Source of the DNA: a virus
Taxonomy: Duplodnaviria > Heunggongvirae > Uroviricota > Caudoviricetes
Strand: one strand, 5' to 3'
Length of the DNA stretch: 64,000 nucleotides
Virus record (IMG/VR): IMGVR_UViG_3300014204_000143
Under the pieces are notes generated by a model that ran no database searches, was not told where the DNA came from, and saw nothing but the letters and a program-made list of their open reading frames with translations. A program made the position numbers and the translations under genes. The stretch's first letter is position 1. Each line of letters starts with the position of its first letter. Positions 420 through 62,900 of this stretch are shown here, piece by piece.

Positions 420-3275
420 ATGGCTACACTTTATTGGTACGGTGGTTCAGGAAATTTTAGTTCAGCATCAGGTCACTGGAGTACAAACTCTGGCAATGTT
501 CCTGCGGCTGACCACGTAGCACCAACATCAACAGATGATGTTATTTTTGATACTTCAAGTTCTGTAGCAGAAGCTGCTTATACTGTAACTATTGATGCAA
601 CTGCTAATTGTCAGAACTTTACAATGGATGGACCAAGTGCCACTGATGCCACTAAAGTAACTTGGGCTGGAAGTTCCACATTAAATATTTATGGAAATAT
701 TAATTTGAGTGGAGGTACGGCAGGAATTACTTCAACATATAGTGGTGGAATAAATATGGCCGCCACTAGTGGAACAAAAACTATTGATTTTAATTCTGTT
801 ATTCATCTAGGTCGTTTGTTGTTTGGTATATACGGTAGTGACTCCGCTACTTTTCAATTATCCAGAGATATTGAATTAGCATTTGTAGGTGGTGCTTCAT
901 CTTATTTTGGGTTAGATTATGGAGCGTTTGATGCTAATGGAAAAACGGTTACTCTTAATATCTCCTCTACGGATGGTATTAGAGGTCCAATAACATTTTA
1001 TAATTTAATTTTACTAGGGGTTGCAAGAAATGACAACAAAGTAACTTTAAATTCTAATATAACAGTTTCTAATACCCTAACAATAACTGGAGGTTCCGCT
1101 ATTAACCGTATTTTAGTGGAATCTAATACAATTGGAACTTCTAGAACGATAACTGCAGCTGCCATCTCAATCTCTAATGCCGATTTCCAAGATATTACTG
1201 GTGCTGGTGATGCAACTTGGGATATGTCTGCTATTACTGGGGGTTCTGGTAATTGTGGTGGAAACTCAATGAAAGCATTGGGTGATGCTGCCTTTACTAC
1301 CGCAGATACTTGGTACTGGCATGCTGATACTGGTAATGTTTCAGACTACACAAAATGGTATACAGAAACTAATGGTGGTGGCTCACAAATGGCTTCCACC
1401 TTAGTTCCACTACCTCAAGATACCTTAAGATTTGATGACAGTTCTTTTAATAGTGGTTCACAAACGATAACTCAGAACATGCCTCGTATTGGAAGTATTG
1501 ATTTTACAGGAGCGACTAATACACCCACATTTACAACCTCAACAGTGGCTTCAGTGTTTGGTTCTATTACCTTAATAAGTGGGATGACTTTGACGGCTTC
1601 AACTCAGGTATATACTTTTGAAGGAAGAAACAGTTATTTTTTAACAAATGCAGGAAAATCTTGGGGAAAAGCAATTATAATAAACGCCCCAAATGGTTCA
1701 TTAACATTAAAAGATGATTACAATTCTATTGCTTCAATAACTTTGACTAACGGTACTTTTAGTGCAGTAGATGGTGCTATAAATTCAAATGTTACTTTGA
1801 GTGCACTTTTATCAAATAATACTAATACTGGAAGAACACTTACAATGGGTTCTGGATTATGGACATTTTCTACAGAAGCAGTGAGTTTTGTTTTAATAAA
1901 TGCTACCAATCTTACTTTTACTTCTACTACCTCAACAATAAAACTTACAGCAGTTTTGACTGGTAATAGATTTTTTAGTGGAGGAGGATTAACTTTTGGA
2001 AACTTTTGGAATGCGACTACTGGTGCATATTCAATAATAATGTCAACTTCTGATTATTTCAACGACTTTAAAATAGACGCTGGTAGAGAAGTTAATTTTA
2101 CAAACTCAACAACAACAACTGTAAACACATTTACTGCTTTAGGAACATCTGGTTCACATATAGTAATTCATAACACTTCAGGAACAACTCACGCTACTCT
2201 TACTAAAGCAGGTGGGGGATTAATAACTGGTTGTGATTACATAGACATTCAAGAAATGACAGGGAGTCCTATTTCTACTTGGTATATAGGTTCGAATTCT
2301 ACTGACACTGGAAGCACTTGTACAAATATTTATTTAGAAAATACACCAACAACAACGTCAAGTAGTTCTAGTACATCAAGTTCAACTTCAAGTTCTACTA
2401 GCTCATCAACCTCAAGTTCAACGTCTAGCTCGACAAGTAGTTCTACAAGTTCTAGCACATCTAGTTCGACCTCAAGCAGTACATCTAGTTCAACATCAAG
2501 TAGCACTAGCTCATCGACTTCAAGTTCAACAAGTTCTTCGACTTCAAGTTCAACAAGTAGCTCGACTAGTTCTTCAACTTCAAGTTCGACTACTAGTTCT
2601 TCAACTTCGTCAAGTACGTCTAGTTCGACTTCAAGTTCTACAAGTTCTTCGACTTCAAGTTCTACGTCTAGCTCAACATCTAGTTCTACAAGTTCTTCAA
2701 CTTCGTCAAGTACGTCTAGTTCTACTTCAAGTTCTACAAGTTCTTCAACTTCAAGTTCTACGTCTAGTTCAACATCTAGTTCTACTAGCTCATCGACTTC
2801 AAGTTCTACGTCTAGTTCAACTAGTTCGACTTCAAGTTCTACTAGTTCTTCGACTTCAAGTTCTACGTCTAGCTCAACATCTAGTTCTACTTCAAGCTCT
2901 ACAAGTTCTTCAACCAGTAGTTCTACGTCTAGTTCAACTTCAAGTTCAACGTCTAGTTCGACTTCAAGCTCAACGTCTTCATCTACGAGTAGTTCTACTA
3001 GTTCATCAACTAGTTCTAGCACGTCTAGCTCAACATCTAGCTCAACTAGCTCATCAACCTCGAGTTCAACGTCTAGTTCAACTAGTTCAACATCTAGTTC
3101 GACTAGTAGTTCGACTAGTTCTTCAACGTCTAGTTCAACATCTAGCTCAACTAGTTCTTCAACTTCAAGTTCAACGTCTAGTTCGACGAGTTCTTTGCCT
3201 ATGGAATTTGGATTAACTCATCCATCTGGAAGTATAGGAATATTTACTCTTTATGGAAGCAAACCAAGATATTAA
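420..3275 (+). CDS. Putative tail fibre/adhesin. The N-terminal ~640 aa are Gly/Ser/Thr/Asn-rich and probably beta-rich; the C-terminal ~285 aa are near-perfect (STSSS)n.
   Basis: 951-aa ORF. Its composition and size fit phage fibre proteins. It is immediately followed by more structural-like genes. Confidence 0.55.
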   Translation: MATLYWYGGSGNFSSASGHWSTNSGNVPAADHVAPTSTDDVIFDTSSSVAEAAYTVTIDATANCQNFTMDGPSATDATKVTWAGSSTLNIYGNINLSGGTAGITSTYSGGINMAATSGTKTIDFNSVIHLGRLLFGIYGSDSATFQLSRDIELAFVGGASSYFGLDYGAFDANGKTVTLNISSTDGIRGPITFYNLILLGVARNDNKVTLNSNITVSNTLTITGGSAINRILVESNTIGTSRTITAAAISISNADFQDITGAGDATWDMSAITGGSGNCGGNSMKALGDAAFTTADTWYWHADTGNVSDYTKWYTETNGGGSQMASTLVPLPQDTLRFDDSSFNSGSQTITQNMPRIGSIDFTGATNTPTFTTSTVASVFGSITLISGMTLTASTQVYTFEGRNSYFLTNAGKSWGKAIIINAPNGSLTLKDDYNSIASITLTNGTFSAVDGAINSNVTLSALLSNNTNTGRTLTMGSGLWTFSTEAVSFVLINATNLTFTSTTSTIKLTAVLTGNRFFSGGGLTFGNFWNATTGAYSIIMSTSDYFNDFKIDAGREVNFTNSTTTTVNTFTALGTSGSHIVIHNTSGTTHATLTKAGGGLITGCDYIDIQEMTGSPISTWYIGSNSTDTGSTCTNIYLENTPTTTSSSSSTSSSTSSSTSSSTSSSTSSSTSSSTSSSTSSSTSSSTSSSTSSSTSSSTSSSTSSSTSSSTSSSTSSSTSSSTTSSSTSSSTSSSTSSSTSSSTSSSTSSSTSSSTSSSTSSSTSSSTSSSTSSSTSSSTSSSTSSSTSSSTSSSTSSSTSSTSSSTSSSTSSSTSSSTSSSTSSSTSSSTSSSTSSSTSSSTSSSTSSSTSSSTSSSTSSSTSSSTSSSTSSSTSSSTSSSTSSSTSSTSSSTSSSTSSSTSSSTSSSTSSSTSSSTSSSTSSLPMEFGLTHPSGSIGIFTLYGSKPRY
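2356..3195 (+). repeat. In-frame tandem repeat with a 15-nt period encoding (STSSS)n. Synonymous codons are shuffled between units.
   Basis: Direct reading: units such as agt tct acg tct agt, agc tca aca tct agt and so on. The protein repeat is perfect while the DNA repeat is degenerate. The same repeat type occurs at 1-290 and 5060-5225. Confidence 0.9.
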
Positions 3276-3276
3276 T

Positions 3277-3379
3277 AGCTAGTTTATCCCGCTGGGTTAG
3301 CATTAGTTATTTACAACTAGTTTATCCCATTGGGTTGACGTTAGTTATTTATAACTAATGTTATAATTAATAAATAAAG
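3277..3379 (+). promoter_or_regulatory. Two tandem copies of a ~38-bp element (TTTATCCC-N3-TGGGTT-N4-TTAGTTAT) followed by an extended -10 (TGTTATAAT at 3359-3367), ~20 nt upstream of ATG 3388
   Basis: Seen directly. The same element plus TGTTATAAT recurs at 11933-11991, upstream of ATG 12017. Confidence 0.45.
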
Positions 3380-3387
3380 TAAAAAAA

Positions 3388-4788
3388 ATGATAACAATTA
3401 GAGCCGACAATCTTATTCTTACAAAAAACTCTCCATATTCGTATTTGAATACCAATTATATTGCAGGTGTCACAGATATGGTGGTTGTTAATTGGATTGA
3501 TTTTAAACCAGATGACTACGTTTTAATTGGAGAATGGGGTTCAGAAAACACAGAAATTGTTCAAGTATCTTCTATAAAGGGGTCTACAAATACAATTACC
3601 CTTAAGGTTGCAAGTAAATTCTCTCATGCTGAAAGTACAAAAGTAACCATTATTAGATATAATATGGTGTTGTTTTATCACACAACAACTACCACATTTT
3701 CTACTGGAACTCACGTTAGACAAAAATCATATCTTGGAAATGATACTACTCAATTTGATATAACTAATCCAGCAGGAACAACATTTAGATATACTTGGGA
3801 CGGAACAGGAACTAATCCATTAATTGCAGACTTCGCAGTAATCGGAAATTCGGTTTATATTTCTGCTCAAAACTTTAATGCTAGCAATAATGGAACATTT
3901 GTTATAACAGGAAAAGGAACTAATTATTTTGAAGTTACTAATGCTTCTGGTGTAATTGAATCTAATAAAACAATTGGAACTGGTTCGGTTGCTATTAAAT
4001 CAGATAGACTTGCAATTGCCTCTGATAGTCAATTTACTGATATTTTTGATGATACTTATACAACTGGATATGGTTGGTATTTATTTTATAACTCTACCAC
4101 TGATACTGTAACTCAACAAAGTAATTATATCCCCTATAGTGGATTTGAAGAAGACTCAACCAAGAGTGTTCTCGACAGATTCTTTGATATTCTCTCTAAC
4201 TCTGAACAGAAACTTATTACAACTGATATGGCCTACTCGTGGATGAATGAGGGTTATTCTAAAATATATAATGCTCTCGGACTAGTTAATAAAGAATATA
4301 ACTCACCAAGTTCAGTTACAATCACAACTACTTCTGGAACAGCTGAGTATCTTATTTCTACTTATATGACAGATTTTGCAGATATTATTTCTGTTTATTG
4401 TGGCACTGAAGATAACGAAGTTGGAAATATATCACTAGACAAAATAGATGGTTGGAATTCCGAAACCGACAACACTGTTAAATATTTTATTCGAGGGAAT
4501 TATATTGGTTTTTCTCCAGTTCCAGCGGCGGCAACTGCTTATACAATTCGCTATGCCACGAAGTCAGCAACGGTCTCAAGCTATATTGATGAATTAAATT
4601 TACCAGATGGAAGTTTCTACTGCGTGACTGACTGGATGCTTTTTAGAGCCAGTATGAAGGCTAGTAGTATTGATGGAGCAATGCACAAAAACTTATTTGA
4701 TGAAGCTGTTAAGGTAATGCAATTAGTTTCTCACAAAAGAGACGCTAATCTAGATAGTTGGGGAATTGCTAATAACGCTAACGTTTAA
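3388..4788 (+). CDS. Structural (tail-fibre/baseplate-like) protein carrying one copy of the 'FDITNPAGTTFRYTWDGTG' repeat domain
   Basis: 466-aa ORF. Residues ~120-200 match the repeat domain found six times in ORF 6762..11708. Preceded by the promoter-like element. Confidence 0.5.
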   Translation: MITIRADNLILTKNSPYSYLNTNYIAGVTDMVVVNWIDFKPDDYVLIGEWGSENTEIVQVSSIKGSTNTITLKVASKFSHAESTKVTIIRYNMVLFYHTTTTTFSTGTHVRQKSYLGNDTTQFDITNPAGTTFRYTWDGTGTNPLIADFAVIGNSVYISAQNFNASNNGTFVITGKGTNYFEVTNASGVIESNKTIGTGSVAIKSDRLAIASDSQFTDIFDDTYTTGYGWYLFYNSTTDTVTQQSNYIPYSGFEEDSTKSVLDRFFDILSNSEQKLITTDMAYSWMNEGYSKIYNALGLVNKEYNSPSSVTITTTSGTAEYLISTYMTDFADIISVYCGTEDNEVGNISLDKIDGWNSETDNTVKYFIRGNYIGFSPVPAAATAYTIRYATKSATVSSYIDELNLPDGSFYCVTDWMLFRASMKASSIDGAMHKNLFDEAVKVMQLVSHKRDANLDSWGIANNANV

Positions 4789-4790
4789 TT

Positions 4791-5234
4791 ATGGCAGGTA
4801 GTAAAACAAAAAACTCTCAACGACTTACAATTCAATACTTCGAAGGTGTCAACGCTCAGGTTGGAAATAACTTATCTAAAACAACCGAACTCAGGCACGT
4901 CGAAAACGCCAGAAGTAATAAAATTGGAATCATCGAGAAGCGGACTGGTAAAACTTTAACAGGAGATGATGTGGATACATTAAGTGTCTACTCCTTGTTT
5001 TATTTTGATAACGCTGGAGCAACAAATACGGGACTCTATATGGTGATAGATTTCAATAATAGTACAACCACCTCATCGACTTCTTCAAGCACTTCAAGTT
5101 CAACTACGTTTACAAGTTCAACAAGTAGTTCTACTTCGTCTAGTACGTCATCGAGCACGTCTAGTTCGACTACCTTTACAAGTTCAACTTCATCGTCAAC
5201 ATCTTCATCAACTAGTTCAACAACTACTTTATAA
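4791..5234 (+). CDS. Small structural-module protein with a C-terminal STSSS-repeat tail
   Basis: 147-aa ORF. The C-terminal ~50 aa are STSSS/TTFTSS repeats. Tightly coupled to its neighbours. Confidence 0.45.
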   Translation: MAGSKTKNSQRLTIQYFEGVNAQVGNNLSKTTELRHVENARSNKIGIIEKRTGKTLTGDDVDTLSVYSLFYFDNAGATNTGLYMVIDFNNSTTTSSTSSSTSSSTTFTSSTSSSTSSSTSSSTSSSTTFTSSTSSSTSSSTSSTTTL

Positions 5235-5237
5235 AAT

Positions 5238-6761
5238 ATGTCAGCAAAATTATATTATTTAAATACATCAGGAGTTTGGACATTAATGACAGACCCAGAT
5301 TTGGCTGGTCTTGCTAGTGCTAGAGTCGACACAACGGTCGCTGAGGGGTGTTGCTTTATGGTAAACGGAACAAGTAACAACCTCTACATTATGGCAACTG
5401 GAACGACTGTAGTGCCTTCTACGACCGCTACAGGGCATCTGTACAACTCTCCAAAAGCAAGAAAGATAAACTACTATAAAGATAGACTCTACCTCGGAGA
5501 CTATACCGTTGGTTCAATTAGATATAAAAATGGAATTGCACTCTCTTCGAATCCAATGGGAATCCTCTCGCTTATAAATGAGGATGTTACCCCATCAGGT
5601 TCAACGGTTATAAAAGTAACCGATACAAAATATATTAGAACGACTGATTTGTTAGAAGTCTACAGAGGTTCTGTTAAAATAGCAACTTTAACGGTAACTA
5701 AAAAAACAGAAAGTTCTATTACGGCCACAGTTGTATTTGAAATAACTGTCCCAGCAACTACTACATTATTAAGTGCTGACGAACTCTGGGTAAGTGGAAC
5801 TTATAGCGGAACCAGATTGTTTAGATGGTGCGATAGATTTGCGAGTGGTGTTGATGTAAAAGAATATGACAGTTTTAGAATTACTTGTGACCAAAACGAA
5901 AGTATAAAAATGTTAGTTAATATCGGCGATGTTATGATTATTGGAACTGATAATAGTTTAGCCGCCTGGAACGGAACCAATCTTCAAAACTATGATATGG
6001 GAATCGGGTGTGTCAGTGAGAATGGTTATGTTAAACACGGTTATCTTTTCTTTATTCACTATACGGGTATCTATAGAACTTCAGGAGAAAGTCCTCAATT
6101 AATTTCTGATAAAATTAAACCATATATTGATGGAGCAACTAAAAGCGGACTAGAAAGTGCTTGTATGGGAAAGAAAGGTGACAGTATCTTTTGTTATATC
6201 GGAGATGTAACACTCTACAACGAAGATGGCAGTATCGATAAAACTCTAAGCAATGTTACTCTTGAATATAACTTACGACAAGGTAATTGGTTTGTACATA
6301 CTGGAATAGAAATAAAACAGTTCTGTACATACCCACAAGAAACTGATAGCACCTCACTTCAAATAATTGATAACAGTGATAGAAATATTTATGAATTCTT
6401 ATCTGGGGAAACCGACAATGGAACAGTGATTCCTTTTAGAATGGATACCGAAGAAATTAATTTTGGGGGTGAAATTGAAAGTTTATTCTCTTTAAGAAAA
6501 ATAATTTTAGAAGTTGAAAGAGGAACAAACATTCATATCTTTTTAAGTCTAGATGGTGGTGCTTGGTATGAATTAAAAACTACCGCCACTAAGGGAGCAA
6601 ATACAATCGCTATCACTGCCAAGGATGATAATAATAGTGCTCCTCCAAGATGTCGTCGTGTCAGAATAAGTATGCGACACAATGAAAAACAATTATGTAA
6701 AATAAGTAGACTCGCTTTAGAATATAGTTCAAGTATAGAAGAAGAAGAAAATAGAGCATAA
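5238..6761 (+). CDS. Hypothetical virion/tail protein
   Basis: 507-aa ORF inside the co-directional structural block. Its stop overlaps the next start (TAAATG at 6759-6764). Confidence 0.4.
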   Translation: MSAKLYYLNTSGVWTLMTDPDLAGLASARVDTTVAEGCCFMVNGTSNNLYIMATGTTVVPSTTATGHLYNSPKARKINYYKDRLYLGDYTVGSIRYKNGIALSSNPMGILSLINEDVTPSGSTVIKVTDTKYIRTTDLLEVYRGSVKIATLTVTKKTESSITATVVFEITVPATTTLLSADELWVSGTYSGTRLFRWCDRFASGVDVKEYDSFRITCDQNESIKMLVNIGDVMIIGTDNSLAAWNGTNLQNYDMGIGCVSENGYVKHGYLFFIHYTGIYRTSGESPQLISDKIKPYIDGATKSGLESACMGKKGDSIFCYIGDVTLYNEDGSIDKTLSNVTLEYNLRQGNWFVHTGIEIKQFCTYPQETDSTSLQIIDNSDRNIYEFLSGETDNGTVIPFRMDTEEINFGGEIESLFSLRKIILEVERGTNIHIFLSLDGGAWYELKTTATKGANTIAITAKDDNNSAPPRCRRVRISMRHNEKQLCKISRLALEYSSSIEEEENRA

Positions 6762-9700
6762 ATGACTCAAAAAAATTACAATTCAATAGATAATCCCTAC
6801 GATAGTTTTTTAAATCGTACCGATGCTGGAGCGTCAACCGTTGTTAATAGTGGTCAGGAATATGGAGGGACAACTTTTACCGATAGTGGAAATGGTGGTT
6901 CGGCTAGTCCCAATGGTTCTCCAGATGTTTCTAGTCCTAATGATGTTTCTGGGGGTTCGATTCAAGGTTCAAGTTTTCAAAGTATCTGGTTAAAGGACTG
7001 GATTAAATCAAGAAATTACAAACCGAAATCTGTCGGTTTTTATATTGACGGTAAAACTGGTTACGCTGAGTTTGTGAATGTTTATGTGAGTGGTAACATT
7101 CAAGCTTTGTCTGGTTTGATTGGTGGATTTACAATTGGAGCGACAAACTTATCGGCAACCTCTGGTGGAAATACTACAATTGTGTCTAGTGGCTCAACTG
7201 CCTTTAGTGCTGGACCAACTGGTGCTCCAACTTTTTATGTTACTCAGGCTGGAGTTTTAAATGCAACTGGGGCGATTATTTCTGGAACATTAACTGCCAC
7301 AACTGGTTATATTGGAGGTTGGTTAATTAATGCAACTAATTTATCGGCAACTGGAATAATCTTAGACTCTCTAAATCAGCAAATTAAAGTTGGTGCTACT
7401 GACCCAATTATAATTGATGGTTTATTAAAAGAAATTGAAAGTAGTAATTATGTTTCGGGTGCTTTTGGTGCTGGATTCCACTTAGATAGTAATTTATTTG
7501 AAGTTGGTAATATTTCGTGTCGAGGGATGATACGAACTTCTGTATTTCAAAAAGATTTAATTAATGTGATGGGTGGAAGTTTTGTTGTTCTTGATGGTGA
7601 TATTTTAGATACAACGATGACTGCACTTGACACCGCAACTATTACAACCAAAGGAACGGTCAATTTTTCAATCAATGATATATTAAGAATTAAAGAAGAT
7701 ATTGACGATGAATGGTTTAGAGTTACAAACGTTTCTGGACATCCAACTTATGTTGTCACAAGAGACTTGGCTGGAATGTATCCATCAAATACAAATCCAT
7801 GCTGGACAAAGGGATCAACTATTGTAAATTATAGACAGAGTGGAGATGGTGGAGTTTTTATGACAGCAACAGAAACGGATGCACCTTATCTTAGTATTTT
7901 TGACCATGCAGGTTCTCCGTGGACTACGATTAATACTAGACTTAGACTTGGTAATTTAAACGGATTTTTAGGTTACTCTTCTGACTTATATGGAATTGCA
8001 ATTGGAGAAACCAATTCATACTTAAAATATGATACCGACAATGGATTAAGAATTAAAGGAGATATTACAATTACAGGGGGGAATGCTTCTGTAACATTTT
8101 ATGAATCAACTGAACCAGTATCTGGAATGAAGGCTGGTGATTATTGGGTTGATTCAGATGACAATTCTCTTCATGTATATCAGGGAGGTGTATGGGTACT
8201 TGTTGCCGCATCGGGAGTTAAAGTTTTTTCTGCTGAACCAACCACTCCTTATCATGTTGGAGATTTATGGGCAAGCGGAGTCTTTCTTAAAATATGTAAT
8301 CATGAACTACTAACTGGTGTTTATAATCCTTTAGACTGGAGTTATGCTACTGGATATACCGATGATACTGTAGCAAATTCTAAAATAAAAACGTTTATTC
8401 AAACAACAATTCCAACTTCTATTTCTGCTGGAGATTTGTGGATTGATTCCGATGATGGAAACAAACTTTATCGTGCAACTAATGCGGGGGATACAACAAT
8501 TGGTCCAACGGCGTGGGTAGTTGTTCCAATTGACTTTGCTAATATAAATGGTGCAACTAAACCAGAAAATAATGCTACCGTTGGAGCTACTTGGGGAACA
8601 AATCTTGTAAACATTCCAGGAACATTGGGAACTCCAACTGGAACTGGTTTGTTTCTTTCTTCCACTCATTTAGGTTTCTATGATGCTCCAAATTGGAAAA
8701 CATATATGGATAGTTATGGGAATTTTTATTTAGGAGGGACTTCTGGTAAATTACAGTGGGTTGCTGGAACAAATACTCTCACAATTACTGGTATTATAAA
8801 TGCCGATAGTGGAACAATTGGAGGATTTACTCTTGGTGCTGATTATATTCGTGATTCTGCTAATGGTGTTGGATTAGCATCAACTGTTAGTGGTGGAGAC
8901 GATGTTAGGTTTTGGGCTGGAGATACTTTTGCCAATAGAGATATTGCTCCATTTAGAGTTTATGAATCTGGTAATGTAGTTATGGAGAGAATCACAGCTT
9001 CAAATATTCAAGCATATGATGCTATTGTAGATATAAATGGTGGAGGAGACTATTATGATTTATATGGTGCAGTTTTAAATGGTGCTAAAAAGATATTTAT
9101 TAGAAACGGTGAATATATTTTGACTTCACAACTAGATATTGCACAAGAAAATGTAAAAATTGAAGGACAGTCTCGTGATAAAACAATCATAACTAGAGCA
9201 AGAGGTGGTAATAATATTTATTTTTTATTGGGTGATGGAACTACTCAATGGGACGTAACTAATCCAGCAGGAACAACATTTAGATACACATGGAATGGTC
9301 AAGGTTATGAACCAGATTTTTCTAAACTAAAAGATGGCTATAATATATTGATAGAATCAAGTAGTGGAACTAGTTATCTTGATTATGATAATACTGGAAA
9401 TTTTTGTATTACTGGAACTGGAACTACTTATTTTGAAATTACTAATTCTTCTGGTGTTGTAGAAACTGGAAAAACAATTGGACTTGACGATACTAGTTAT
9501 ATAAAGATAAGACCAAAAGCTATATATGGTTATGCTACTGGTGGTGGTGGTGGAAACCTAACAGAATATACAGTTACTAATCCAGTTGGAACAACGTGGA
9601 GATACACCTATACTGGAGTTGGAGGAGACCCAGATATAACTACTAGAGTTAAGGTTGGAATGTTAGTTGATATGATTGATTCTTCATTTTCTACTAATAA

Positions 9701-31858: not shown

Positions 31859-31906
31859 AGTTTAACATACTAAAAACACCTTGTCAAGTAGTAAACTGTG
31901 GACAAC
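31859..31906 (-). promoter_or_regulatory. Sigma70-like promoter on the minus strand (TTGACA-17 nt-TAAACT) with an upstream TTGTCCACA (DnaA-box-like) site, driving ORF 31145..31831
   Basis: Reverse complement of 31859-31887 reads TTGACAAGGTGTTTTTAGTATGTTAAACT. The element is near-identical to 47029-47076 and, inverted, to 47451-47497. Confidence 0.5.
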
Positions 31907-32619
31907 TATTTTCCAGCAACCAAATTACCAGCCCTTAAAAGTGAATTAAATGTTCCTGCATCAGTCCACCATCCCCCCAATACATGACTCCCCATAGATC
32001 CATTTTTAACAAAGTAATTATTAACATCGGTAATTTCTAATTCACCTCTGCCTGATGGTTTTAGCGTTTTGATTACATCCCATACTTCTTTGTTGTAGAA
32101 ATATAAACCAGTGACAGCTAAATTACTTTTTGGGTCTTCTGGTTTTTCTTCAATACAGACAACTTTGCCATCTTCATTTATCTCAGCTACTCCGAATCTT
32201 TGTGGGTCATCAACTATCTTTAAAAAAATATTGGCGGAGTCGGATGTGCTTTGAAAATTTCTAACAAACCCAGCAATGTCATCCTCATAAATGTTATCCC
32301 CAAGAATAACAGCGACATCTTCGTCTCCAGCAAAACGCTCACACAGTCCCAACGCTTCTGCAATCCCTCCAGCCTCTTCTTGAACCTCATAAGAAAACTT
32401 AGCACCGAATGATTTACCAGAACCAAGCAAGTCTAAAAAGTTACCAGCGTTCCCCTTACCAGAAACAATCATGATTTCATTTATCCCTGACTTTGTTAGA
32501 GTTTCGATTGGATAATAAATCATCGGTTTGTCATACACTGGCAGTAAATGCTTGTTAAAAATACGAGTGCATTCACCCAGCCTACTACCAGTCCCTCCTG
32601 CGAGAATAATTCCCTTCAT
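31906..32619 (-). CDS. rmlA: Glucose-1-phosphate thymidylyltransferase (RmlA-like sugar nucleotidyltransferase, short form)
   Basis: MKGIILAGGTGSRL...LLPVYDKPMIYYPIETL..., ...EEKP..PKSNLAVTGLYFY and ...GELEITD.. match the RmlA family along the whole length. Confidence 0.8.
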   Translation of the reverse strand: MKGIILAGGTGSRLGECTRIFNKHLLPVYDKPMIYYPIETLTKSGINEIMIVSGKGNAGNFLDLLGSGKSFGAKFSYEVQEEAGGIAEALGLCERFAGDEDVAVILGDNIYEDDIAGFVRNFQSTSDSANIFLKIVDDPQRFGVAEINEDGKVVCIEEKPEDPKSNLAVTGLYFYNKEVWDVIKTLKPSGRGELEITDVNNYFVKNGSMGSHVLGGWWTDAGTFNSLLRAGNLVAGK

Positions 32620-33307: not shown

Positions 33308-34216
33308 TTATTTAATTAAGTCTTCTATATCTATTCCGTGAGTTTGATACCACCAATCTCTATCTTTATCTTTATTGTTTTCTTTTAATCTATTGTATTT
33401 TAACAATATTTTATTTTGCCTATTAATTTCTTCTTTAAAAAATGGAATATCAAAATCATTGTTACTTTTATATAACTCTCTCAATATTTTTCTTAATACG
33501 TATCCTTGTTTAGTGTTACTTGGTTTATATCCAGCCTCAATTATTTTTAAAGCACATTCTTTTAATAAATCTATTTTATTATTTTTTATAATTCCATTAA
33601 CAATACTATCTAGTCTTTCATATCCAAATCCAACATCTATACATGTTCCAAGTGGATTAACAATATTACCAATTTCTATTCCTTTGTGATAAAATTCTGT
33701 ACAATATCCCCCAATATTACCATCTGACCAAAGACACTCGTTATCAATTTTAACTTTTATTTTATGTTTTTTATAAAAGTTATCCCATTCTTTTTTATCT
33801 TGATGAACAGTTGCGTGGTCTATTTTAATGCCAATTCTTTTCATAAATTCAACAAAAAAATCAATTGCCATTTCTACCGACATATCCCTAAAAGAAAACA
33901 ATCCAATCATATTAAAATATGCTAAATGAGTTCCATCTCCAATTTCATTAAAATCATTTAACCTAATACAACTTTGGATATTAGCTCTTGTGCCATAATA
34001 ATTAGTATCAATAAAATTACTTTTAAACTGTTGCATTCCAGCTGGACAAAATAAGGTTGTAGTATCATAAGGAGAAACAGAATTATTAACACTAAATGGT
34101 ATGTTGTTTTCTCTACAAAGTTCACTATAGATTTTTATTATATCCATATTCTTAATTAAGTCTTCTATTTTTTTCGTTAAGAAGCATTTGTTTAATCTTA
34201 CCATCATCAAAGGCAT
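33308..34216 (-). CDS. Alanyl-tRNA synthetase catalytic-core homologue. It is truncated and lacks the tRNA-recognition, editing and C-Ala domains.
   Basis: Block-by-block match to the AlaRS N-terminus: SPYDTTTLFCPAGMQQFK (DPTLLFTNAGMNQFK), QSCIR (QRCVR), HLAYFNMIGLFSFRD (HHTFFEMLGNFSFGD), ECLWSDGNIGGYCTEFYH ([20 protein letters not shown]), IEIGNIV (IEIWNIV) and IDVGFGYERL (VDTGMGLERI). Confidence 0.65.
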   Translation of the reverse strand: MPLMMVRLNKCFLTKKIEDLIKNMDIIKIYSELCRENNIPFSVNNSVSPYDTTTLFCPAGMQQFKSNFIDTNYYGTRANIQSCIRLNDFNEIGDGTHLAYFNMIGLFSFRDMSVEMAIDFFVEFMKRIGIKIDHATVHQDKKEWDNFYKKHKIKVKIDNECLWSDGNIGGYCTEFYHKGIEIGNIVNPLGTCIDVGFGYERLDSIVNGIIKNNKIDLLKECALKIIEAGYKPSNTKQGYVLRKILRELYKSNNDFDIPFFKEEINRQNKILLKYNRLKENNKDKDRDWWYQTHGIDIEDLIK

Positions 34217-35757: not shown

Positions 35758-36660
35758 TTATTTATTATTCCAGCGTTCTTTCAAAATAATTCTATTATTA
35801 TCTATCATTTTTCTAATTTCTGGTTCATTTTTAATCTTGCTCATTGAACATCCTCCAACATGAAGCGTTCTAAACTCAGACGTTCTATAGGTTTCATAAC
35901 CCAACATTCTCATTTCTTTCCAAAGATTTCTATCCTCACCAAATCCAACTTTATAATCTTCATCATAAAATTGATAACCATCTCTTAGGTTAGAAATTTT
36001 ATTTGCTAATTCTTTAGTAAACATAAAGAAACTTCCCATTTCTGCTCCTGGTTCTTTAATATCTTTGTGTGGAAGATTTATTTGTTCTTTTTTTAAATTG
36101 ATTGATTTGTAAAAATCAAGTCTTCCTTTTTCATTTAAACAATCTGTCTGATAACACGATTTTATAAGATTGCTCATAAGGGCTCCAATTGGTTTTTCAA
36201 ATTGAGGATTATTAGATTCAAAATCTTTTATCATACTCTCAACCCAACCATCCCAAACTACAATATCATTATTGGCAGCAACTATATAAGGACACCTAGA
36301 AAGTGCTATTCCTTGATTCATTGCCTTTCCAAATCCTAAATTATCTGTATTTTTAATTAGAATATCTGCTTGTGCAAAATATTCAGATGGTGTAAAAAAT
36401 TCATCTCTCTCGGTAAATTTCCATGAACAGTTTGGATTTAAAAATTCATCTAATACTTCATCATCAGTTAGTCTACTTCCATTATCAATAATGATATATT
36501 CTACTAATTCTCTTGGTGTGTTTTCCAGCATTCTTTTTAAACAAATAGAAGCTATCATCCAAGTTTCATATTTACCATATTTACCACAATGTTCTGGTAA
36601 AAACCAACTTGGAATAACAATACTTACTTTCTTTTTATTTTTTTCAAAATTATTTCCCAT
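35758..36660 (-). CDS. Family-2 glycosyltransferase
   Basis: KVSIVIPSW... then YIIIDNGS... then NLGFGKAMNQG...ANNDIV, the GT-A/GT2 hallmark order. Confidence 0.6.
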   Translation of the reverse strand: MGNNFEKNKKKVSIVIPSWFLPEHCGKYGKYETWMIASICLKRMLENTPRELVEYIIIDNGSRLTDDEVLDEFLNPNCSWKFTERDEFFTPSEYFAQADILIKNTDNLGFGKAMNQGIALSRCPYIVAANNDIVVWDGWVESMIKDFESNNPQFEKPIGALMSNLIKSCYQTDCLNEKGRLDFYKSINLKKEQINLPHKDIKEPGAEMGSFFMFTKELANKISNLRDGYQFYDEDYKVGFGEDRNLWKEMRMLGYETYRTSEFRTLHVGGCSMSKIKNEPEIRKMIDNNRIILKERWNNK

Positions 36661-37568: not shown

Positions 37569-39408
<1,840 letters not shown>

Positions 39409-39508: not shown

Positions 39509-39769
39509 CTAATTAATAACAGCAATAATGTTATCAATGTGAATATAGGAATACTTATCATTCTCATAAGTAAATTCCCCAAGAGCGTGTTCATGAAAGA
39601 CAATCAAACTTCCAACTTTTAAATTTTTAAACTTTTCGTTTGTTGTTTCTGGCAGACTAGTTATTTCCCCAATCGATTTATGTTCCTCACTTTGAGATAG
39701 AACAAGTCCAGAAGTTGTTTCGTTTTTTTTGATTTTGACAAGCACGTTGTCGTTTAGTGGTGTAATCAT
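39509..39769 (-). CDS. groES: Co-chaperonin GroES (Hsp10)
   Basis: MITPLNDNVLVK...TTSGLVL...VGSLIVF..., ~86 aa, directly upstream of groL. The internal Met at 39769 is preferred over the longer track ORF. Confidence 0.75.
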   Translation of the reverse strand: MITPLNDNVLVKIKKNETTSGLVLSQSEEHKSIGEITSLPETTNEKFKNLKVGSLIVFHEHALGEFTYENDKYSYIHIDNIIAVIN

Positions 39770-45340: not shown

Positions 45341-45429
45341 TGGAGGTCTTGGTTGGGAGTCGAACCCAAATACCTTGTATGTGGCTGTTCCTAACCACTA
45401 CGCTCTATCCAAATTGAGCTACCAAGACC
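45341..45429 (-). tRNA. tRNA gene (isotype unresolved, possibly His-like with a G-1 nucleotide). The anticodon region is unusually long.
   Basis: Reverse complement reads G-GTCTTGG TA GCTC AATTTGGATA GAGC ... TTGGG TTCGACT CCCAA CCAAGAC C. There is a perfect 7-bp acceptor stem, a canonical D-arm and a TPsiC arm (GGGTTCGACTCCC). The segment between the D-arm and T-arm is ~9 nt longer than standard. Confidence 0.6.
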
Positions 45430-47497: not shown

Positions 47498-47643
47498 GGT
47501 AGTGATTTCTTCGAAATCAAAAAAACTATTTCAGTAATCATCCAGTTCTCATACTTCTGGATGGTTATAGTGGGTTAGAAAAGTAGCAATTCGCAAGCCC
47601 CATAAGCTTGAGACACAGGTGCAAATCCTGTACCCGCCACCAA

Positions 47644-50403: not shown

Positions 50404-50979
50404 ATGAAAAAAGATAAATTGGAGATTGTCGCTCCACATTTCAAGAAGTCACAAGAAGTTACTAAAGAGAATCTCACGTTAATTTCTGATGTTATGTTTG
50501 CCATGGTTGATATATGCCAGAAGCTAGAAGAAGACAAAATAGTTTCTGATGCTTATGCTTTAGCCCATTGTCAAGTCGAATCAGAAACTCCGTTGAGATT
50601 TTTTGTTTTTAATATTACCAATCCAGAAATTTCAATGCTAATCGGCACCGATATTTCTCCTGTCATTATTAATCCATGTATTGTCAATCACACTAAAGTT
50701 TTTGTAGAAAAAGCAGAAGCGTGTTTGAGTGCGGCTGGGTATGGTGGAGCAATTGTTAAGAGGTTTAATAAAGTGACGGTAGAATTTAATGAACTTCAAA
50801 CCGACGATGATAAAACTTTCTATATGGGTGAAAGACGAACGATGAATCTAAGTGGAAAACTTTCTCAAATTTTTCAACACGAGATAGACCACTTCTTAGG
50901 TAGATACATATTTGAAGACGATATTATGGAAAGTATTGCCGAGATAATGGAAAAAGATAAAAAAAAGAAAGAGAAATAA
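50404..50979 (+). CDS. def: Peptide deformylase
   Basis: EACLSAAGYGG (EGCLS motif II) and QHEIDHFLG (HEXXH motif III). Confidence 0.75.
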   Translation: MKKDKLEIVAPHFKKSQEVTKENLTLISDVMFAMVDICQKLEEDKIVSDAYALAHCQVESETPLRFFVFNITNPEISMLIGTDISPVIINPCIVNHTKVFVEKAEACLSAAGYGGAIVKRFNKVTVEFNELQTDDDKTFYMGERRTMNLSGKLSQIFQHEIDHFLGRYIFEDDIMESIAEIMEKDKKKKEK

Positions 50980-51127: not shown

Positions 51128-52132
51128 ATGCGAAAATTAGTAACAGTTCAAAAGGTATTAGAAAAAAAATCAATAGAAGGAGCCGATAGAATTGAGGCAG
51201 TAAGGATTAATGGTTGGTGGGTAGTGACACAAAAAGACCAATTTAAAGTTGGCGAGTATTGTATTTATTTTGAGGTGGATTCGTTTTTGCCAATTAAACC
51301 AGAATTTGAATTTCTTTTAAATGGTAAGTCGCCTAAAAAAATGCTATACAAAGGAAAAGAAGTTGAGGGTATTAGGTTGAAAACAATTAAGTTAAAAGGA
51401 CAGCTGAGCCAGGGCTTAGTAATGCCAATTACCGAAACGATGATAATAAAAGAAATTGATGAAGATTTGTCAGATTATTTTGGAGTTATATTATACGAAC
51501 AACCAGTCCCACCACAACTTCAAGGATATGCTAAGGGCAATTTTCCAGGATTTATTCCAAAGACTGATGAAGAAAGAATACAAAATATGACGGAAATTTT
51601 TAATAATTATGTCGCCACAGAAAAGATTGATGGCACTTCTGCAACATATTATAAAAAAGACGGGGTATTTGGGGTTTGTAGTAGAAATTTAGAATTAGTT
51701 AAAGGGGAAAGTATTTATTGGAGAATCGCAGAAAAATATAATTTAGAAAATATAATTCCAGACGGGTTATGTTTTCAGGGGGAAATAATAGGAGAGGGTA
51801 TTCAAGGAAATCCTTTAAAGCAAACTGGTCAAGATATTTATTTTTTCAATGTCTATAATATTGAAAGCAATACTTATTTAGATTTTGATGAATTTCTAAA
51901 TATTTGTGAAAAATTAAATCTTAAAACTGTTCCAATTATAAATGACAATTTTTCTTTGCCAAAAAATGTTGATGATATGTTATGGTTTGCAGAAGGGTTT
52001 GCAGAAGGAAAAAGTTTATTGAATCCAAACGTAGAACGAGAAGGCGTTGTCGTCAGAAGTAAAAACAAAATAAATGGCGAAAGGATTTCTTTTAAAGCCA
52101 TTTCAAATACTTATTTATTAAATGAAAAATAA
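51128..52132 (+). CDS. ATP-dependent RNA ligase (Rnl2/DRB0094-like nucleotidyltransferase)
   Basis: Ligase motif I ATEKIDGTSATYY (KxDG), ...FQGEIIGEGIQGN and motif IV-like EGVVVRS. Confidence 0.6.
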   Translation: MRKLVTVQKVLEKKSIEGADRIEAVRINGWWVVTQKDQFKVGEYCIYFEVDSFLPIKPEFEFLLNGKSPKKMLYKGKEVEGIRLKTIKLKGQLSQGLVMPITETMIIKEIDEDLSDYFGVILYEQPVPPQLQGYAKGNFPGFIPKTDEERIQNMTEIFNNYVATEKIDGTSATYYKKDGVFGVCSRNLELVKGESIYWRIAEKYNLENIIPDGLCFQGEIIGEGIQGNPLKQTGQDIYFFNVYNIESNTYLDFDEFLNICEKLNLKTVPIINDNFSLPKNVDDMLWFAEGFAEGKSLLNPNVEREGVVVRSKNKINGERISFKAISNTYLLNEK

Positions 52133-57950: not shown

Positions 57951-58826
57951 ATGAAAAATGTTCTTATAACTGGATACCGAGGTTTTGTCGGTCGAAGTCT
58001 CTGCACTCAACTCGCTTGTCAAGGAATTACCCATAGCGGATATGACTTGCTTGATGGCGATGATATTCGTGATAAGTTTACGCTTGATACTAAATTTATG
58101 AATGGTAATTTTGATAGCGTGATTCATCTGGCGGCTTTAACTGGAGTCCCACGGAGCGACGAGTATTATGAAGAATATTTTAGCACCAACGTTGTCGGGA
58201 CACAGAACGTGGTGAATCTAGCAAAAAAATATGGAGTCAAAAATATAATCTTTTATAGTTCATCTTCTGTCTATGGTGGAGCAACTAATGAAAAAGGAAT
58301 CAGTGAGAGTTTTCAACTTCGTCCAATTTCTACTTATGGAATTACAAAAAAAACTGGCGAAGATATTATAAAAAATAGCGGACTCAACTGGGCAATTGTT
58401 CGGCCATTTACGATTTATGGTGAGCAAGGAAAACCATTTGCAGTGATTAAGAAGTGGATTAATCAGATTAAGGCTGGACAACCTATCACGTTTTATGGTG
58501 ATGGCACATCTTCACGAGGGTATACTTACATTAAAGACATTGTTAAAACCACGATTGACTTACTAAACAAAATGGAATCAGGGATGGGGGCTGACATTTA
58601 TAACGTAGGAGGATCTGAAAATATAACCCTTAACGAACTTTATCAAATTTTTGAAGAAGTCTGTAAGCGTAAGAAAATAAAAATTGAAAGAGTGAATAAA
58701 GAGAGACCCGACTATGATATAGCAAACTCCTTTGCTGATGTGACTAAAGCAAAACTTTTACTGGGATATGAACCTAAGGGAAATTTTAAAGAAGCCACGA
58801 GAGCGATACTGGAGGCTGAACTGTAG
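57951..58826 (+). CDS. NAD-dependent sugar epimerase/dehydratase/reductase (extended SDR)
   Basis: N-terminal ITGYRGFVGRSL (GxxGxxG), YSSSSVYGG and YGITK (YxxxK). Confidence 0.8.
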   Translation: MKNVLITGYRGFVGRSLCTQLACQGITHSGYDLLDGDDIRDKFTLDTKFMNGNFDSVIHLAALTGVPRSDEYYEEYFSTNVVGTQNVVNLAKKYGVKNIIFYSSSSVYGGATNEKGISESFQLRPISTYGITKKTGEDIIKNSGLNWAIVRPFTIYGEQGKPFAVIKKWINQIKAGQPITFYGDGTSSRGYTYIKDIVKTTIDLLNKMESGMGADIYNVGGSENITLNELYQIFEEVCKRKKIKIERVNKERPDYDIANSFADVTKAKLLLGYEPKGNFKEATRAILEAEL

Positions 58827-61520: not shown

Positions 61521-62900
61521 TTATCCTTTAATCACACCCAAAGGGCTTAATTCTACTAATATCTCAACTAAATCTTTTTGATTTTCCATCACGTCTTTGA
61601 TATTTTTATATGAACTTGTTGCCTCGTCTAAATCATCAGCAGTTCTAATTCCGTGGACAATTCCTTGGTCTTCTAATATTTTAATTTCATTTTCTAAGTT
61701 AAGGCTTTTTATTGCTTGTCCTCGTCCCATACATCTACCAGCTCCGTGCGAGCAAGAATTAAAACTTTCTGGATTACCTTTTCCTTTTACAATATAAGAA
61801 TTAGAACCCATTGACCCAGGGATTATTCCGATTGTGTCTTCTGTGGCAAGTGTCGCTCCTTTCCTATGAACCATTACATTTGTTCCAAAATGATTTTCCA
61901 TTCGAGCGTAATTGTGAGCGATGTTTATCATTGGCTCTGTTTTAAATCTTTTTGTTCCTTTATATACTAAATTTTTATACTCTTCTACACTTTTTTCCCC
62001 TCTTTTTTTTAGTTCGTCTAGAACTTTTTTGTCCGTAAATTCCCAATTACATCTTGCACATTTTGGATATTGACTGATAGCAAGTAACTTGTAACCACAT
62101 TTAGGACAACCGTCTCTATATATTTTTTCAAGTCTATCGCATTCATCAATAACTGAATTAAACTGTTTATTAAAGATGTTAATAATTCTCTCCATCATCA
62201 ACTTTCTATTAGCCAAAGCAAACTCAACACAATAATTCATTTCTCTAATATATGCTTTACCCTCTTCGCTATCAATTGGTAAAAAAGCTAAGTCAAATTC
62301 TTTAGGAACTTCACTGTGCCATTTTTCGTTTAATTCTTTAGCTATTTTATTATAATGGTCAGCTACTTGTTTTCCTAAATTTCTTGAACCACTATGAATC
62401 ATAATCCAAATATGTCCGTCAGAACCTTTTTGAATTTCGATGAAGTGATTGCCACCGCCAAGAGTTCCAATAGATAAACAAGCATTGTTAAACTCTTGAT
62501 TACAGATTTTTAAATCATCTGACAATTCTGGCATTAATCTGCTTTGATAAGACTCGTATTCTTTATGTTTATTGAACCCAACAGGAATAGCCCTTCTAAT
62601 TTCACCAATTATTTTTTTAAGGGTATCTTTGTCTAATTCAGTTAAAGAAGTCTTAACTGCACAAAGCCCGCACCCAGCGTCTGACCCGACCATTGACGGA
62701 CAGACTACACCTTTTAATGCAACCACTCCTCCAATAGGCATTCCAAATTTAGAGCAATGACAATCTAGCATTATTGCTACGTGGTGAAATGCAAATGGTA
62801 ATTTTACTAGATTATCAATTTGTGTCATAGCACTTTCTTCTATTTCTGGACACCAACTAAAAACTGGGATTTTGTTTTTTTCTTTTTTAAATTTTTTCAT
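61521..62900 (-). CDS. rtcB: RtcB-family RNA ligase (3'-phosphate/5'-OH) with an inserted CxxC zinc ribbon
   Basis: CPSMVGSDAGCG, GGNHFIEIQ, HSGSRNLG and SCSHGAGRCMGRGQA are RtcB core motifs. CPKCGYKLLAISQYPKCARC is an insert. Confidence 0.8.
   Translation of the reverse strand: MKKFKKEKNKIPVFSWCPEIEESAMTQIDNLVKLPFAFHHVAIMLDCHCSKFGMPIGGVVALKGVVCPSMVGSDAGCGLCAVKTSLTELDKDTLKKIIGEIRRAIPVGFNKHKEYESYQSRLMPELSDDLKICNQEFNNACLSIGTLGGGNHFIEIQKGSDGHIWIMIHSGSRNLGKQVADHYNKIAKELNEKWHSEVPKEFDLAFLPIDSEEGKAYIREMNYCVEFALANRKLMMERIINIFNKQFNSVIDECDRLEKIYRDGCPKCGYKLLAISQYPKCARCNWEFTDKKVLDELKKRGEKSVEEYKNLVYKGTKRFKTEPMINIAHNYARMENHFGTNVMVHRKGATLATEDTIGIIPGSMGSNSYIVKGKGNPESFNSCSHGAGRCMGRGQAIKSLNLENEIKILEDQGIVHGIRTADDLDEATSSYKNIKDVMENQKDLVEILVELSPLGVIKG

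Follow-up and report, generated by a model that had tools for sequence, protein, structure and literature searches.

A reduced gene of the alanyl-tRNA synthetase (AlaRS) type lies on the minus strand of a 64,000-nucleotide stretch of viral DNA, the IMG/VR record IMGVR_UViG_3300014204_000143 (Caudoviricetes), and our work here concerns the identity and probable function of its product, which we call mini-AlaRS; throughout, "the window" denotes this whole stretch, and positions are counted along it. The open reading frame (ORF) as mechanically called in the ORF list spans 33308..34216 and would encode 302 aa, the length given in the initial annotation. That ORF is present as described, but the likely gene product is 279 aa rather than 302, translated from the ATG at 34145-34147, which lies 4 nt beyond the stop codon of the superfamily 2 (SF2) helicase gene (34152-34154). 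All homologues begin at the Met that corresponds to this ATG, none of them shows the 23-codon extension upstream of it, and gene calls on three independent assemblies (ENA, Logan and JGI) yield the identical 279-aa product together with the same downstream genes. Because the homologues and the three sets of gene calls share this start, we take the gene to be 279 aa long, and the extension most likely lies outside the translated protein (Table 1). The initial annotation had also raised the concern of a truncated assembly or a frameshifted alaS, an explanation that we reject given that the same gene recurs in all three assemblies and that its C-terminus is common to the family. In tblastn searches, no homology to AlaRS residues 461-876 was detected downstream of the gene or elsewhere in the 64-kb window, and the two ORFs that follow it, of 58 and 163 aa, have no Pfam or PHROG matches and are not conserved alongside mini-AlaRS.

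The relationship to AlaRS is apparent in profile and fold comparisons alike. The protein matches Pfam tRNA-synt_2c (PF01411) with an E-value of 7.2e-21 and 74.8 bits (gathering cut-off 30.3), phmmer and profile searches of the PDB retrieve AlaRS chains, and hhalign against a canonical AlaRS profile pairs query residues 2-237 with template residues 7-331 (E 3.6e-44), the near-global profile alignment spanning E. coli-type residues 6 to 411. An AlphaFold2 model (mean predicted local distance difference test score, pLDDT, 88.7; predicted template modeling score, pTM, 0.81) finds its best Foldseek matches in catalytic fragments of AlaRS from E. coli (3HXU and 9JC7) and other sources (E ~1e-14, TMq 0.73-0.78), and the top 26 PDB matches are all AlaRS. 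These comparisons bear out the initial annotation, which had recognized an AlaRS catalytic core with its important Arg, Trp, Asn and Asp conserved. In a MAFFT alignment of 34 family members with the full-length AlaRS of Salmonella and Acinetobacter records from the phage collection, those four residues fall at R62, W140, N161 and D171, each aligned to its E. coli counterpart (Table 1; equivalents are given in E. coli mature numbering), and the motifs that had been quoted for them (NIQSCIRL, NECLWSDG, IEIGNIVN and CIDVGFGYERL) are all present in the translation. The ATP/alanine-site residues are invariant in 34/34 phage or metagenome members and in 68/68 bacterial members at ~50-60% identity, from which we infer selection for catalysis; such invariance of the adenylation site at ~50% identity argues for an active enzyme. 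Around this site the core is trimmed. Relative to Salmonella AlaRS, the four-residue motif-2 loop 'GGKH', K73 included, is deleted, and the larger deletions comprise two in the catalytic domain, where the stretch from the W170 to the D235 equivalent has lost two surface insertions, and three in the recognition domain. By these alignments, mini-AlaRS is a true homologue of the AlaRS catalytic domain with an intact alanine and ATP site.

The tRNA-recognition domain of AlaRS has been termed the 'ATL' domain (bioRxiv 10.1101/2023.05.29.542759), and in the E. coli enzyme N303 and D400 are the two residues that read G3:U70 (PMC10036535). The part of mini-AlaRS that follows the core is modeled as five helices (residues 191-204, 213-227, 235-254, 263-270 and 274-278; block pLDDT 76-93), and Foldseek alignments of the protein to AlaRS fragments cover ~400 target columns. 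The first motif in this part is strongly supported, lying inside the main hidden Markov model and hhalign alignments: here 'KPSNTKQGYVLRKILR' of mini-AlaRS is aligned to 'LPSNENRGYVLRRIIR', which places N211 (33515-33517) at the position of N303, the major-groove reader of U70. Across the 34 aligned members G215, Y216, L218, K220 and R223 are invariant, and N211 is kept in at least 90%. A word-index search gave 979 matches, and in its best 120 clusters (53-63% identity) the N303 site is Asn in 91/109; among bacterial members it is Asn in 53/68. The second motif lies at the C-terminus, where the family pattern WWxDTHGIDL is aligned to LYDTYGFPVDL with E. coli D400, the minor-groove reader of G3, within it. 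This site is Asp or Glu in 104/111 of the same 120 closest clusters, and Gln solely in the window's protein (Q268, 33344-33346). The second-best hhalign match, local and collinear, pairs query 265-278 with template 397-410 (P=0.011), and the C-terminal piece alone has its top hhalign match at template 398-410 (P 1e-4 to 7e-4). As modeled and aligned, residues ~186-279 are a heavily deleted remnant of the tRNA-recognition domain. Because this remnant aligns as far as residue 411, the initial annotation, according to which the protein ends after the core and has no tRNA-recognition domain, is wrong on this point, the ~95 C-terminal residues being predicted to form a reduced ATL domain.

The initial annotation was right that both the editing domain and C-Ala are missing. 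The 279-aa protein holds no beta-barrel, editing or C-Ala domain, and tblastn with Salmonella AlaRS residues 461-876 as the editing/C-Ala query revealed no editing (tRNA_SAD, HxxxH/CxxxH) or C-Ala homologue in the window or within 10 kb in the loci examined. Nor does mini-AlaRS reach the alaS equivalog level, scoring 74.4 bits against TIGR00344 (cut-off 457) and 53.1 against NF002436 (cut-off 529). With a score above the Pfam gathering cut-off, scores below those of the equivalog models and two of the four canonical domains absent, the accurate label for the protein is 'AlaRS-related, minimal form'.

Table 1. Features of mini-AlaRS and of its surroundings in the window
Feature	Position in window	Strand	Extent or E. 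coli equivalent	Basis or remark
Mini-AlaRS coding sequence (likely extent)	33308..34147	(-)	279 aa + stop codon 33308-33310	Pfam PF01411
Upstream in-frame extension	34148..34216	(-)	23 codons	Overlaps 3' end of SF2 helicase gene
Class II catalytic core, trimmed	33593..34147	(-)	Residues 1 to ~185	Salmonella/Acinetobacter alignment, hhalign
R62	33962-33964		R69	Motif 2
W140			W170	Pocket
E158-I-G-N161-I-V163			E209-I-W-N212-I-V214	Pocket
D171-V-G173			D235-T-G237	Pocket
G175-x-E-R178 (GFGYER)			Motif-3 Arg	Motif 3
Putative ATL (acceptor-stem) remnant	33311..33592	(-)	Residues ~186-279	AlphaFold2 model, Foldseek, alignments
PSNTKQGYVLRKILR helix (PSN..GYVLRK)	33479..33523	(-)	Residues 209-223	PDB profile alignments, MAFFT
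C-terminal motif WWYQTHGIDIEDL	33317..33355	(-)	Residues 265-277	Aligned to E. coli-type RLYDTYGFPVDLT (MAFFT)
RmlA-like nucleotidyltransferase	31906-32619			
GT2 glycosyltransferase	35758-36660			
NAD-dependent epimerase/dehydratase	57951-58826			
GroEL (Cpn60)	37804-39405		533 aa	
Cpn10 co-chaperonin	~39509-39769	(-)		Position mapped from locus L001
tRNA-Pro(AGG), doubtful	45341-45429	(-)	89 nt	ARAGORN only; Rfam tRNA model silent at gathering score
tRNA-Met	47569-47642			Confirmed by Rfam
Peptide deformylase	50404-50979			
RNA ligase with PHA02142 OB-fold domain	51128-52132			
RtcB	61521-62900			

Mini-AlaRS is a member of a large and conserved family that is not phage-specific. The proteins in the best 120 of the 979 matches are 256-311 aa long, mostly 272-288, share the C-terminal motif and are encoded on contigs of up to 687 kb. 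An exhaustive representative search returned 45 clusters (50% identity level) at E<=1e-30; mini-sized members persist to ~30-35% identity, and full-length AlaRS appear only below ~83 bits. IMG/VR contains 73 loci with mini-AlaRS. In a tblastn search of 50,697 phage records the sole family match was LR745206, an uncultured 634-kb phage that encodes a single mini-AlaRS (58% identity) and otherwise lacks AlaRS homologues, the rest being cellular alaS contaminants or distant matches, and megablast of the 10 kb around the gene returned nothing. In PHROGs v4 the only match was a weak one, falling at the N-terminus of a profile of unknown function with 897 positions, so that none of the PHROGs v4 families represents mini-AlaRS. 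The initial annotation spoke of a phage-borne mini-AlaRS, which holds for the window's gene and its phage relatives but leaves out a wide bacterial distribution: with each GTDB species represented by one genome, a scan identified 76 bacterial loci, nearly all in cultured Alphaproteobacteria (many Rhizobium species, Neorhizobium, Phyllobacterium, Inquilinus, Reyranella and Caulobacteraceae) along with one Armatimonadota metagenome-assembled genome (MAG). A few short AT-rich MAG contigs among these bacterial loci are probably phage. The bacterial members are ~275 aa long and match the window protein at 50-53% identity; the invariant residues recur in them, and their C-terminus reads 'WWFDTHGIDL'. 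In PLSDB, 90 Rhizobium plasmids or chromids have a match, and on many of them the annotation is 'alanine--tRNA ligase-related protein', the only name that many RefSeq records of bacterial orthologues carry as well. In a rough neighbor-joining tree, indicative only because it has no support values, the alphaproteobacterial sequences form a derived clade inside viral and metagenomic diversity and the window protein groups with the phage loci L009 and L005.

A further set of observations links the gene with tRNA-Ala in related phage loci, where it is often found within or beside tRNA arrays; we dereplicated these loci at 90% identity into 38 groups and searched them for tRNAs within 10 kb. Seventeen of the 38 groups have tRNAs within this distance, and 12 of the 17 include a tRNA-Ala call. 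In six distinct loci (L061, L012, L066/L067, L004, L083 and L057) a tRNA-Ala with G3:U70 lies 65-900 nt from the mini-AlaRS gene on the same strand, and in LR745206 a G3:U70 tRNA-Ala is found 399 nt downstream of the only AlaRS homologue of that phage. G3:U70 is present in 18/23 distinct tRNA-Ala calls, with A73 in the printed examples; among non-Ala tRNAs, just 1/165 has G:U at 3:70.

Three further observations concern tRNA genes in these loci. Calls of an 88-nt 'tRNA-Ala(AGC)' in L034, L046 and L072 have U3:A70 and an extra hairpin in the anticodon region; because the anticodon call is unreliable we do not accept them as genuine tRNA-Ala, and the element (8555-8642 in L034, the same in the other two loci) may be an insertion-bearing tRNA of other identity. 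On L010, a 7-kb IMG/VR contig, an array of tRNAs (Glu, Tyr, Glu, Ile, Gly and Ala; 1699-5340) is mirrored on both sides of mini-AlaRS and looks like an inverted-duplication assembly artifact. The 537-kb contig L004, on which mini-AlaRS sits beside a tRNA-Ala, also encodes a 210-aa HisRS-like class II core (380-1012; PF13393, E 5.5e-27) 230 nt upstream of a tRNA-His gene (1243-1315), possibly another case of a 'mini-synthetase beside its cognate tRNA'.

We suggest that mini-AlaRS is best read as an autonomous, editing-free AlaRS that recognizes the acceptor stem only, a reading whose chances we put at about even. The protein would then be a bacterial-type AlaRS aminoacylation module from which every dispensable insertion has been removed, leaving a catalytic core of ~185 residues and an ATL remnant of ~95. 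In such a scheme, mini-AlaRS would bind ATP and L-alanine at its conserved site, make Ala-AMP and pass the alanine to a tRNA-Ala read solely at the acceptor stem (G3:U70 and A73), and any Ser- or Gly-tRNA-Ala formed would either be tolerated or need removal in trans, by host AlaRS, AlaX or DTD. In phages, the enzyme would maintain the charging of tRNA-Ala, from phage and/or host, while infection proceeds and, in the window, would be part of a translation and tRNA-repair toolkit that includes the tRNA-Met, RtcB, the RNA ligase and peptide deformylase. A narrower version, in which a self-sufficient, editing-free AlaRS of ~275-280 aa serves as a natural 'minihelix synthetase' kept for a job apart from bulk translation, is tentative, and we would sooner expect it to fail than to hold; candidate jobs in that case are dedicated charging of phage tRNA-Ala, charging of other G3:U70 acceptors (tmRNA-like RNAs) and an inhibitor- or toxin-insensitive back-up of the host enzyme.

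Several known systems offer comparisons. With canonical bacterial AlaRS (E. coli and Salmonella AlaS, 876 aa) mini-AlaRS shares the class II fold, the motif-2 and motif-3 arginines and the alanine pocket, together with two elements of the tRNA-recognition domain, the PSN..GYVLRR helix and the DT(Y/H)G motif, but it is one third the length and has no beta-barrel, editing or C-Ala domain. The mini-AlaRS of Tupanvirus (TuAlaRS, 461 aa) charges tRNA-Ala and a microhelix via the acceptor stem alone and without the N and D residues (PMC10036535). That giant-virus enzyme is eukaryote-derived, has a full-size catalytic and recognition module and lacks both readers, whereas the phage and bacterial family is ~180 residues shorter, of bacterial type, and mostly keeps the N and D; of the systems compared, mini-AlaRS would work most like the AlaRS aminoacylation module and TuAlaRS. 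A compact AlaRS of 483 aa that we designate P0206 (L082, 716-2167) has a catalytic domain, a short ATL and an editing domain, with no barrel and no C-Ala. Its gene lies directly upstream of an unknown ORF, after which come infA, rpsM, rpsK and rpsD, and from this setting P0206 is probably a housekeeping enzyme, that of a bacterium with a small genome. Like the window's mini-AlaRS, P0206 has the GGKH loop deletion, a shortened ATL and Gln at the D400 site ('LYQSYG'), and such reductions therefore occur in an apparently working tRNA-Ala enzyme. The difference is that P0206 keeps its editing domain (tRNA_SAD, HxxxH/CxxxH), whereas the mini-AlaRS family lacks one and is presumably an extra copy in bacteria. 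The 'small-AlaRS' of CPR/DPANN organisms (bioRxiv 10.1101/2023.05.29.542759) is likewise reduced and built around catalytic and ATL domains. Finally, GlyRS alpha (GlyQ, ~300 aa), similar in size and evolutionarily related to the AlaRS core, is the closest non-AlaRS Foldseek match (E ~1e-6, TMq 0.45-0.48). GlyQ differs in having no ATL domain and in depending on GlyS; the pocket residues of mini-AlaRS are of AlaRS type, and the protein has no match to the GlyRS alpha family tRNA-synt_2e (PF02091) at E<=1.

Several points weigh against an acceptor-stem-only enzyme. E. coli AlaRS fragments shorter than ~461 residues, studied in the Schimmel laboratory, reportedly make the adenylate and do not charge tRNA. 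Bacterial carriers of the family should also have a canonical AlaRS and, because the two presumably coexist, a purely redundant role in bacteria is not obvious. Since a profile search of the PDB with the C-terminal piece alone found no AlaRS, the assignment of the C-terminal motif rests on collinear profile-profile matches and the fold alignment, its support in sequence is modest (hhalign P 1e-4 to 1e-2), and in the window's own protein the D400 equivalent is Q268. The enrichment of tRNA-Ala next to the gene is moderate: Ala is the nearest tRNA in 6/17 loci against 3.3 expected from the tRNA composition of each locus, and adjacency to tRNA-Ala is absent in the window and in 21/38 dereplicated loci. 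The smallest AlaRS shown to aminoacylate is the 461-aa TuAlaRS (PMC10036535), and mini-AlaRS is far smaller. In E. coli, K73 touches the tRNA 3' end and its substitution lowers aminoacylation (PMC6209979); this lysine is deleted here, although A. fulgidus AlaRS and P0206 do without it too.

The surroundings of the gene bear on the alternatives. The window derives from a large AT-rich phage (31.9% GC) in which mini-AlaRS neighbors an RmlA-like nucleotidyltransferase, a family 2 glycosyltransferase (GT2), the SF2 helicase and MerR. Together with peptide deformylase, the RNA ligase and RtcB farther away, which look like a tRNA-repair and translation-support toolkit, these include all the protein-coding neighbors that the initial annotation had named. 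Its mention of tRNAs in the wider region is borne out by one Rfam-confirmed tRNA-Met, but the second call, a tRNA-Pro(AGG), is doubtful; with its odd long acceptor stem and distorted anticodon arm, it could be a tRNA that contains an insertion, or a miscall. The window further encodes a chaperonin pair (Table 1), an SU10-type adaptor, a DnaB-like helicase and a primase zinc finger.

Across the family, no partner or operon gene is conserved in 79 phage or metagenome loci or in 76 bacterial loci, the commonest single neighbor occurring in at most 21/79 phage and 19/76 bacterial loci and being a replication or otherwise unrelated gene. No PP-binding or carrier-protein gene was found among the Pfam-scanned neighbors in the window and relatives, PADLOC-DB models did not match the phage protein or the Rhizobium protein, and no regulatory RNA was detected close to mini-AlaRS, either in the window or at four bacterial loci. 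In L160 (5914-9819), the R. leguminosarum plasmid pSK05, the orthologue is a single gene adjoining three toxin-antitoxin modules (Phd-VapC, RES-Xre and RelE/ParE-HigA); in other genera the bacterial orthologue lies among unrelated genes (serA, Tim44-like, histidine kinase, TonB receptor and NAPRTase). In one phage locus only, L005, a 239-aa protein with a GatB/YqeY domain (5285-6004) overlaps the mini-AlaRS start by 4 nt, and a PTH2 peptidyl-tRNA hydrolase (8316-8678) is encoded 1.5 kb downstream of mini-AlaRS. The YqeY domain is a tRNA-binding module.

The best surviving alternative is that the Ala-AMP core serves as an alanine-adenylating ligase for a non-tRNA acceptor, with a carrier protein, small molecule, sugar, lipid or nucleic-acid base receiving the alanine. 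We consider this unlikely. Most of the tRNA-binding surface is indeed lost (C-Ala, most of the ATL and the K73 loop), a full AlaRS is presumably present alongside the bacterial copies, other aminoacyl-tRNA synthetase (aaRS) paralogues act in this way, for example as amino acid:carrier-protein ligases (review PMC9437257), and in the window the gene sits amid sugar-nucleotide genes (RmlA-like and GT2). That glycosylation neighborhood, however, is peculiar to this phage and not common to other family members, none of the scanned neighbors is a candidate carrier, and a ligase of this kind would leave both the strong conservation of the acceptor-stem helix and C-terminal motif and the linkage with tRNA-Ala genes in other phages unexplained. 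The initial annotation had leaned in this direction, reasoning that the protein probably cannot charge tRNA and so would act on a non-tRNA acceptor. Its premise is not borne out, given a reduced putative acceptor-stem latch (G215, Y216, L218, K220 and R223) that ranks with the best-conserved parts of the family, and the conclusion is weakened further by the G3:U70 tRNA-Ala beside the gene in related phages, by the deletions shared with P0206 and by the want of a conserved partner gene.

Alternatively, mini-AlaRS could be the catalytic subunit in an AlaRS that is split or assisted, and whose phage- or host-encoded tRNA-binding or editing partner, needed for action on full tRNA, is a YqeY/GatB-type protein, AlaX or host AlaRS, which we regard as distinctly improbable. 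The overlapping GatB_Yqey-domain gene of L005, with PTH2 nearby, would suit such an arrangement, as would the precedents of the Nanoarchaeum AlaRS, which is split (PMC11392972), and of bacterial GlyRS alpha, which needs its beta subunit; against it, the YqeY arrangement occurs in that one locus, no partner gene is conserved, and the editing/C-Ala search was negative within 10 kb in the loci examined as well as in the window. Still harder to credit is an AcmF-like transferase that would take alanine from pre-charged Ala-tRNA-Ala and attach it to another molecule. AcmF of ascamycin biosynthesis, a truncated AlaRS-like protein with aminoacylation and tRNA-recognition regions only, exists beside a normal AlaRS (PMC12945691), and a transferase of its type would account for both the retained tRNA-binding elements and the coexistence with canonical AlaRS in bacteria. 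In contrast to mini-AlaRS, AcmF has a degenerate site without most of the ATP/alanine-activation residues (N219Q, D232E) and belongs to a biosynthetic gene cluster, whereas R62, E158, N161, D171, G173 and R178 are invariant here and no such cluster is seen. The least probable of the alternatives is a decoy or regulator without catalysis, which might, for instance, bind tRNA-Ala or alanine and thereby adjust host translation or a stress response. Nothing specific speaks for it beyond the Rhizobium copy among toxin-antitoxin modules; against it stand the invariance of the full catalytic constellation across the family at ~50% identity and the absence of any PADLOC defense-family match.

As for novelty, we found no publication on this mini-AlaRS family, in keeping with the view of the initial annotation that such a phage protein is uncharacterized. 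The broader concept is not new: phage-encoded aaRS genes and a viral mini-AlaRS are already known, the latter through the characterized 461-aa Tupanvirus enzyme (PMC10036535), and Al-Shayeb et al. described aaRS genes in huge phages, with no mention of truncated forms in the passages searched. The mini-AlaRS family is a candidate for the smallest AlaRS in nature and for a naturally occurring enzyme that works through the acceptor stem only. Textbooks cite AlaRS for its recognition of tRNA by one acceptor-stem base pair and for the minihelix 'operational RNA code', and the family would be of interest to aaRS specialists. Because orthologues, WP_094088932.1 among them, occur in the genetically tractable Rhizobium leguminosarum, the question is directly testable. 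Should the acceptor not be tRNA, the family would constitute a new class of aaRS-derived ligases in phages and bacteria. If mini-AlaRS is active, this widely conserved module of ~278 aa, with ~60% of the length of the smallest AlaRS of demonstrated activity, would change what counts as a minimal AlaRS and could serve structural, evolutionary and synthetic biology as a compact scaffold, and phages that carry it would be supplying aminoacylation at minimal coding cost and without proofreading.

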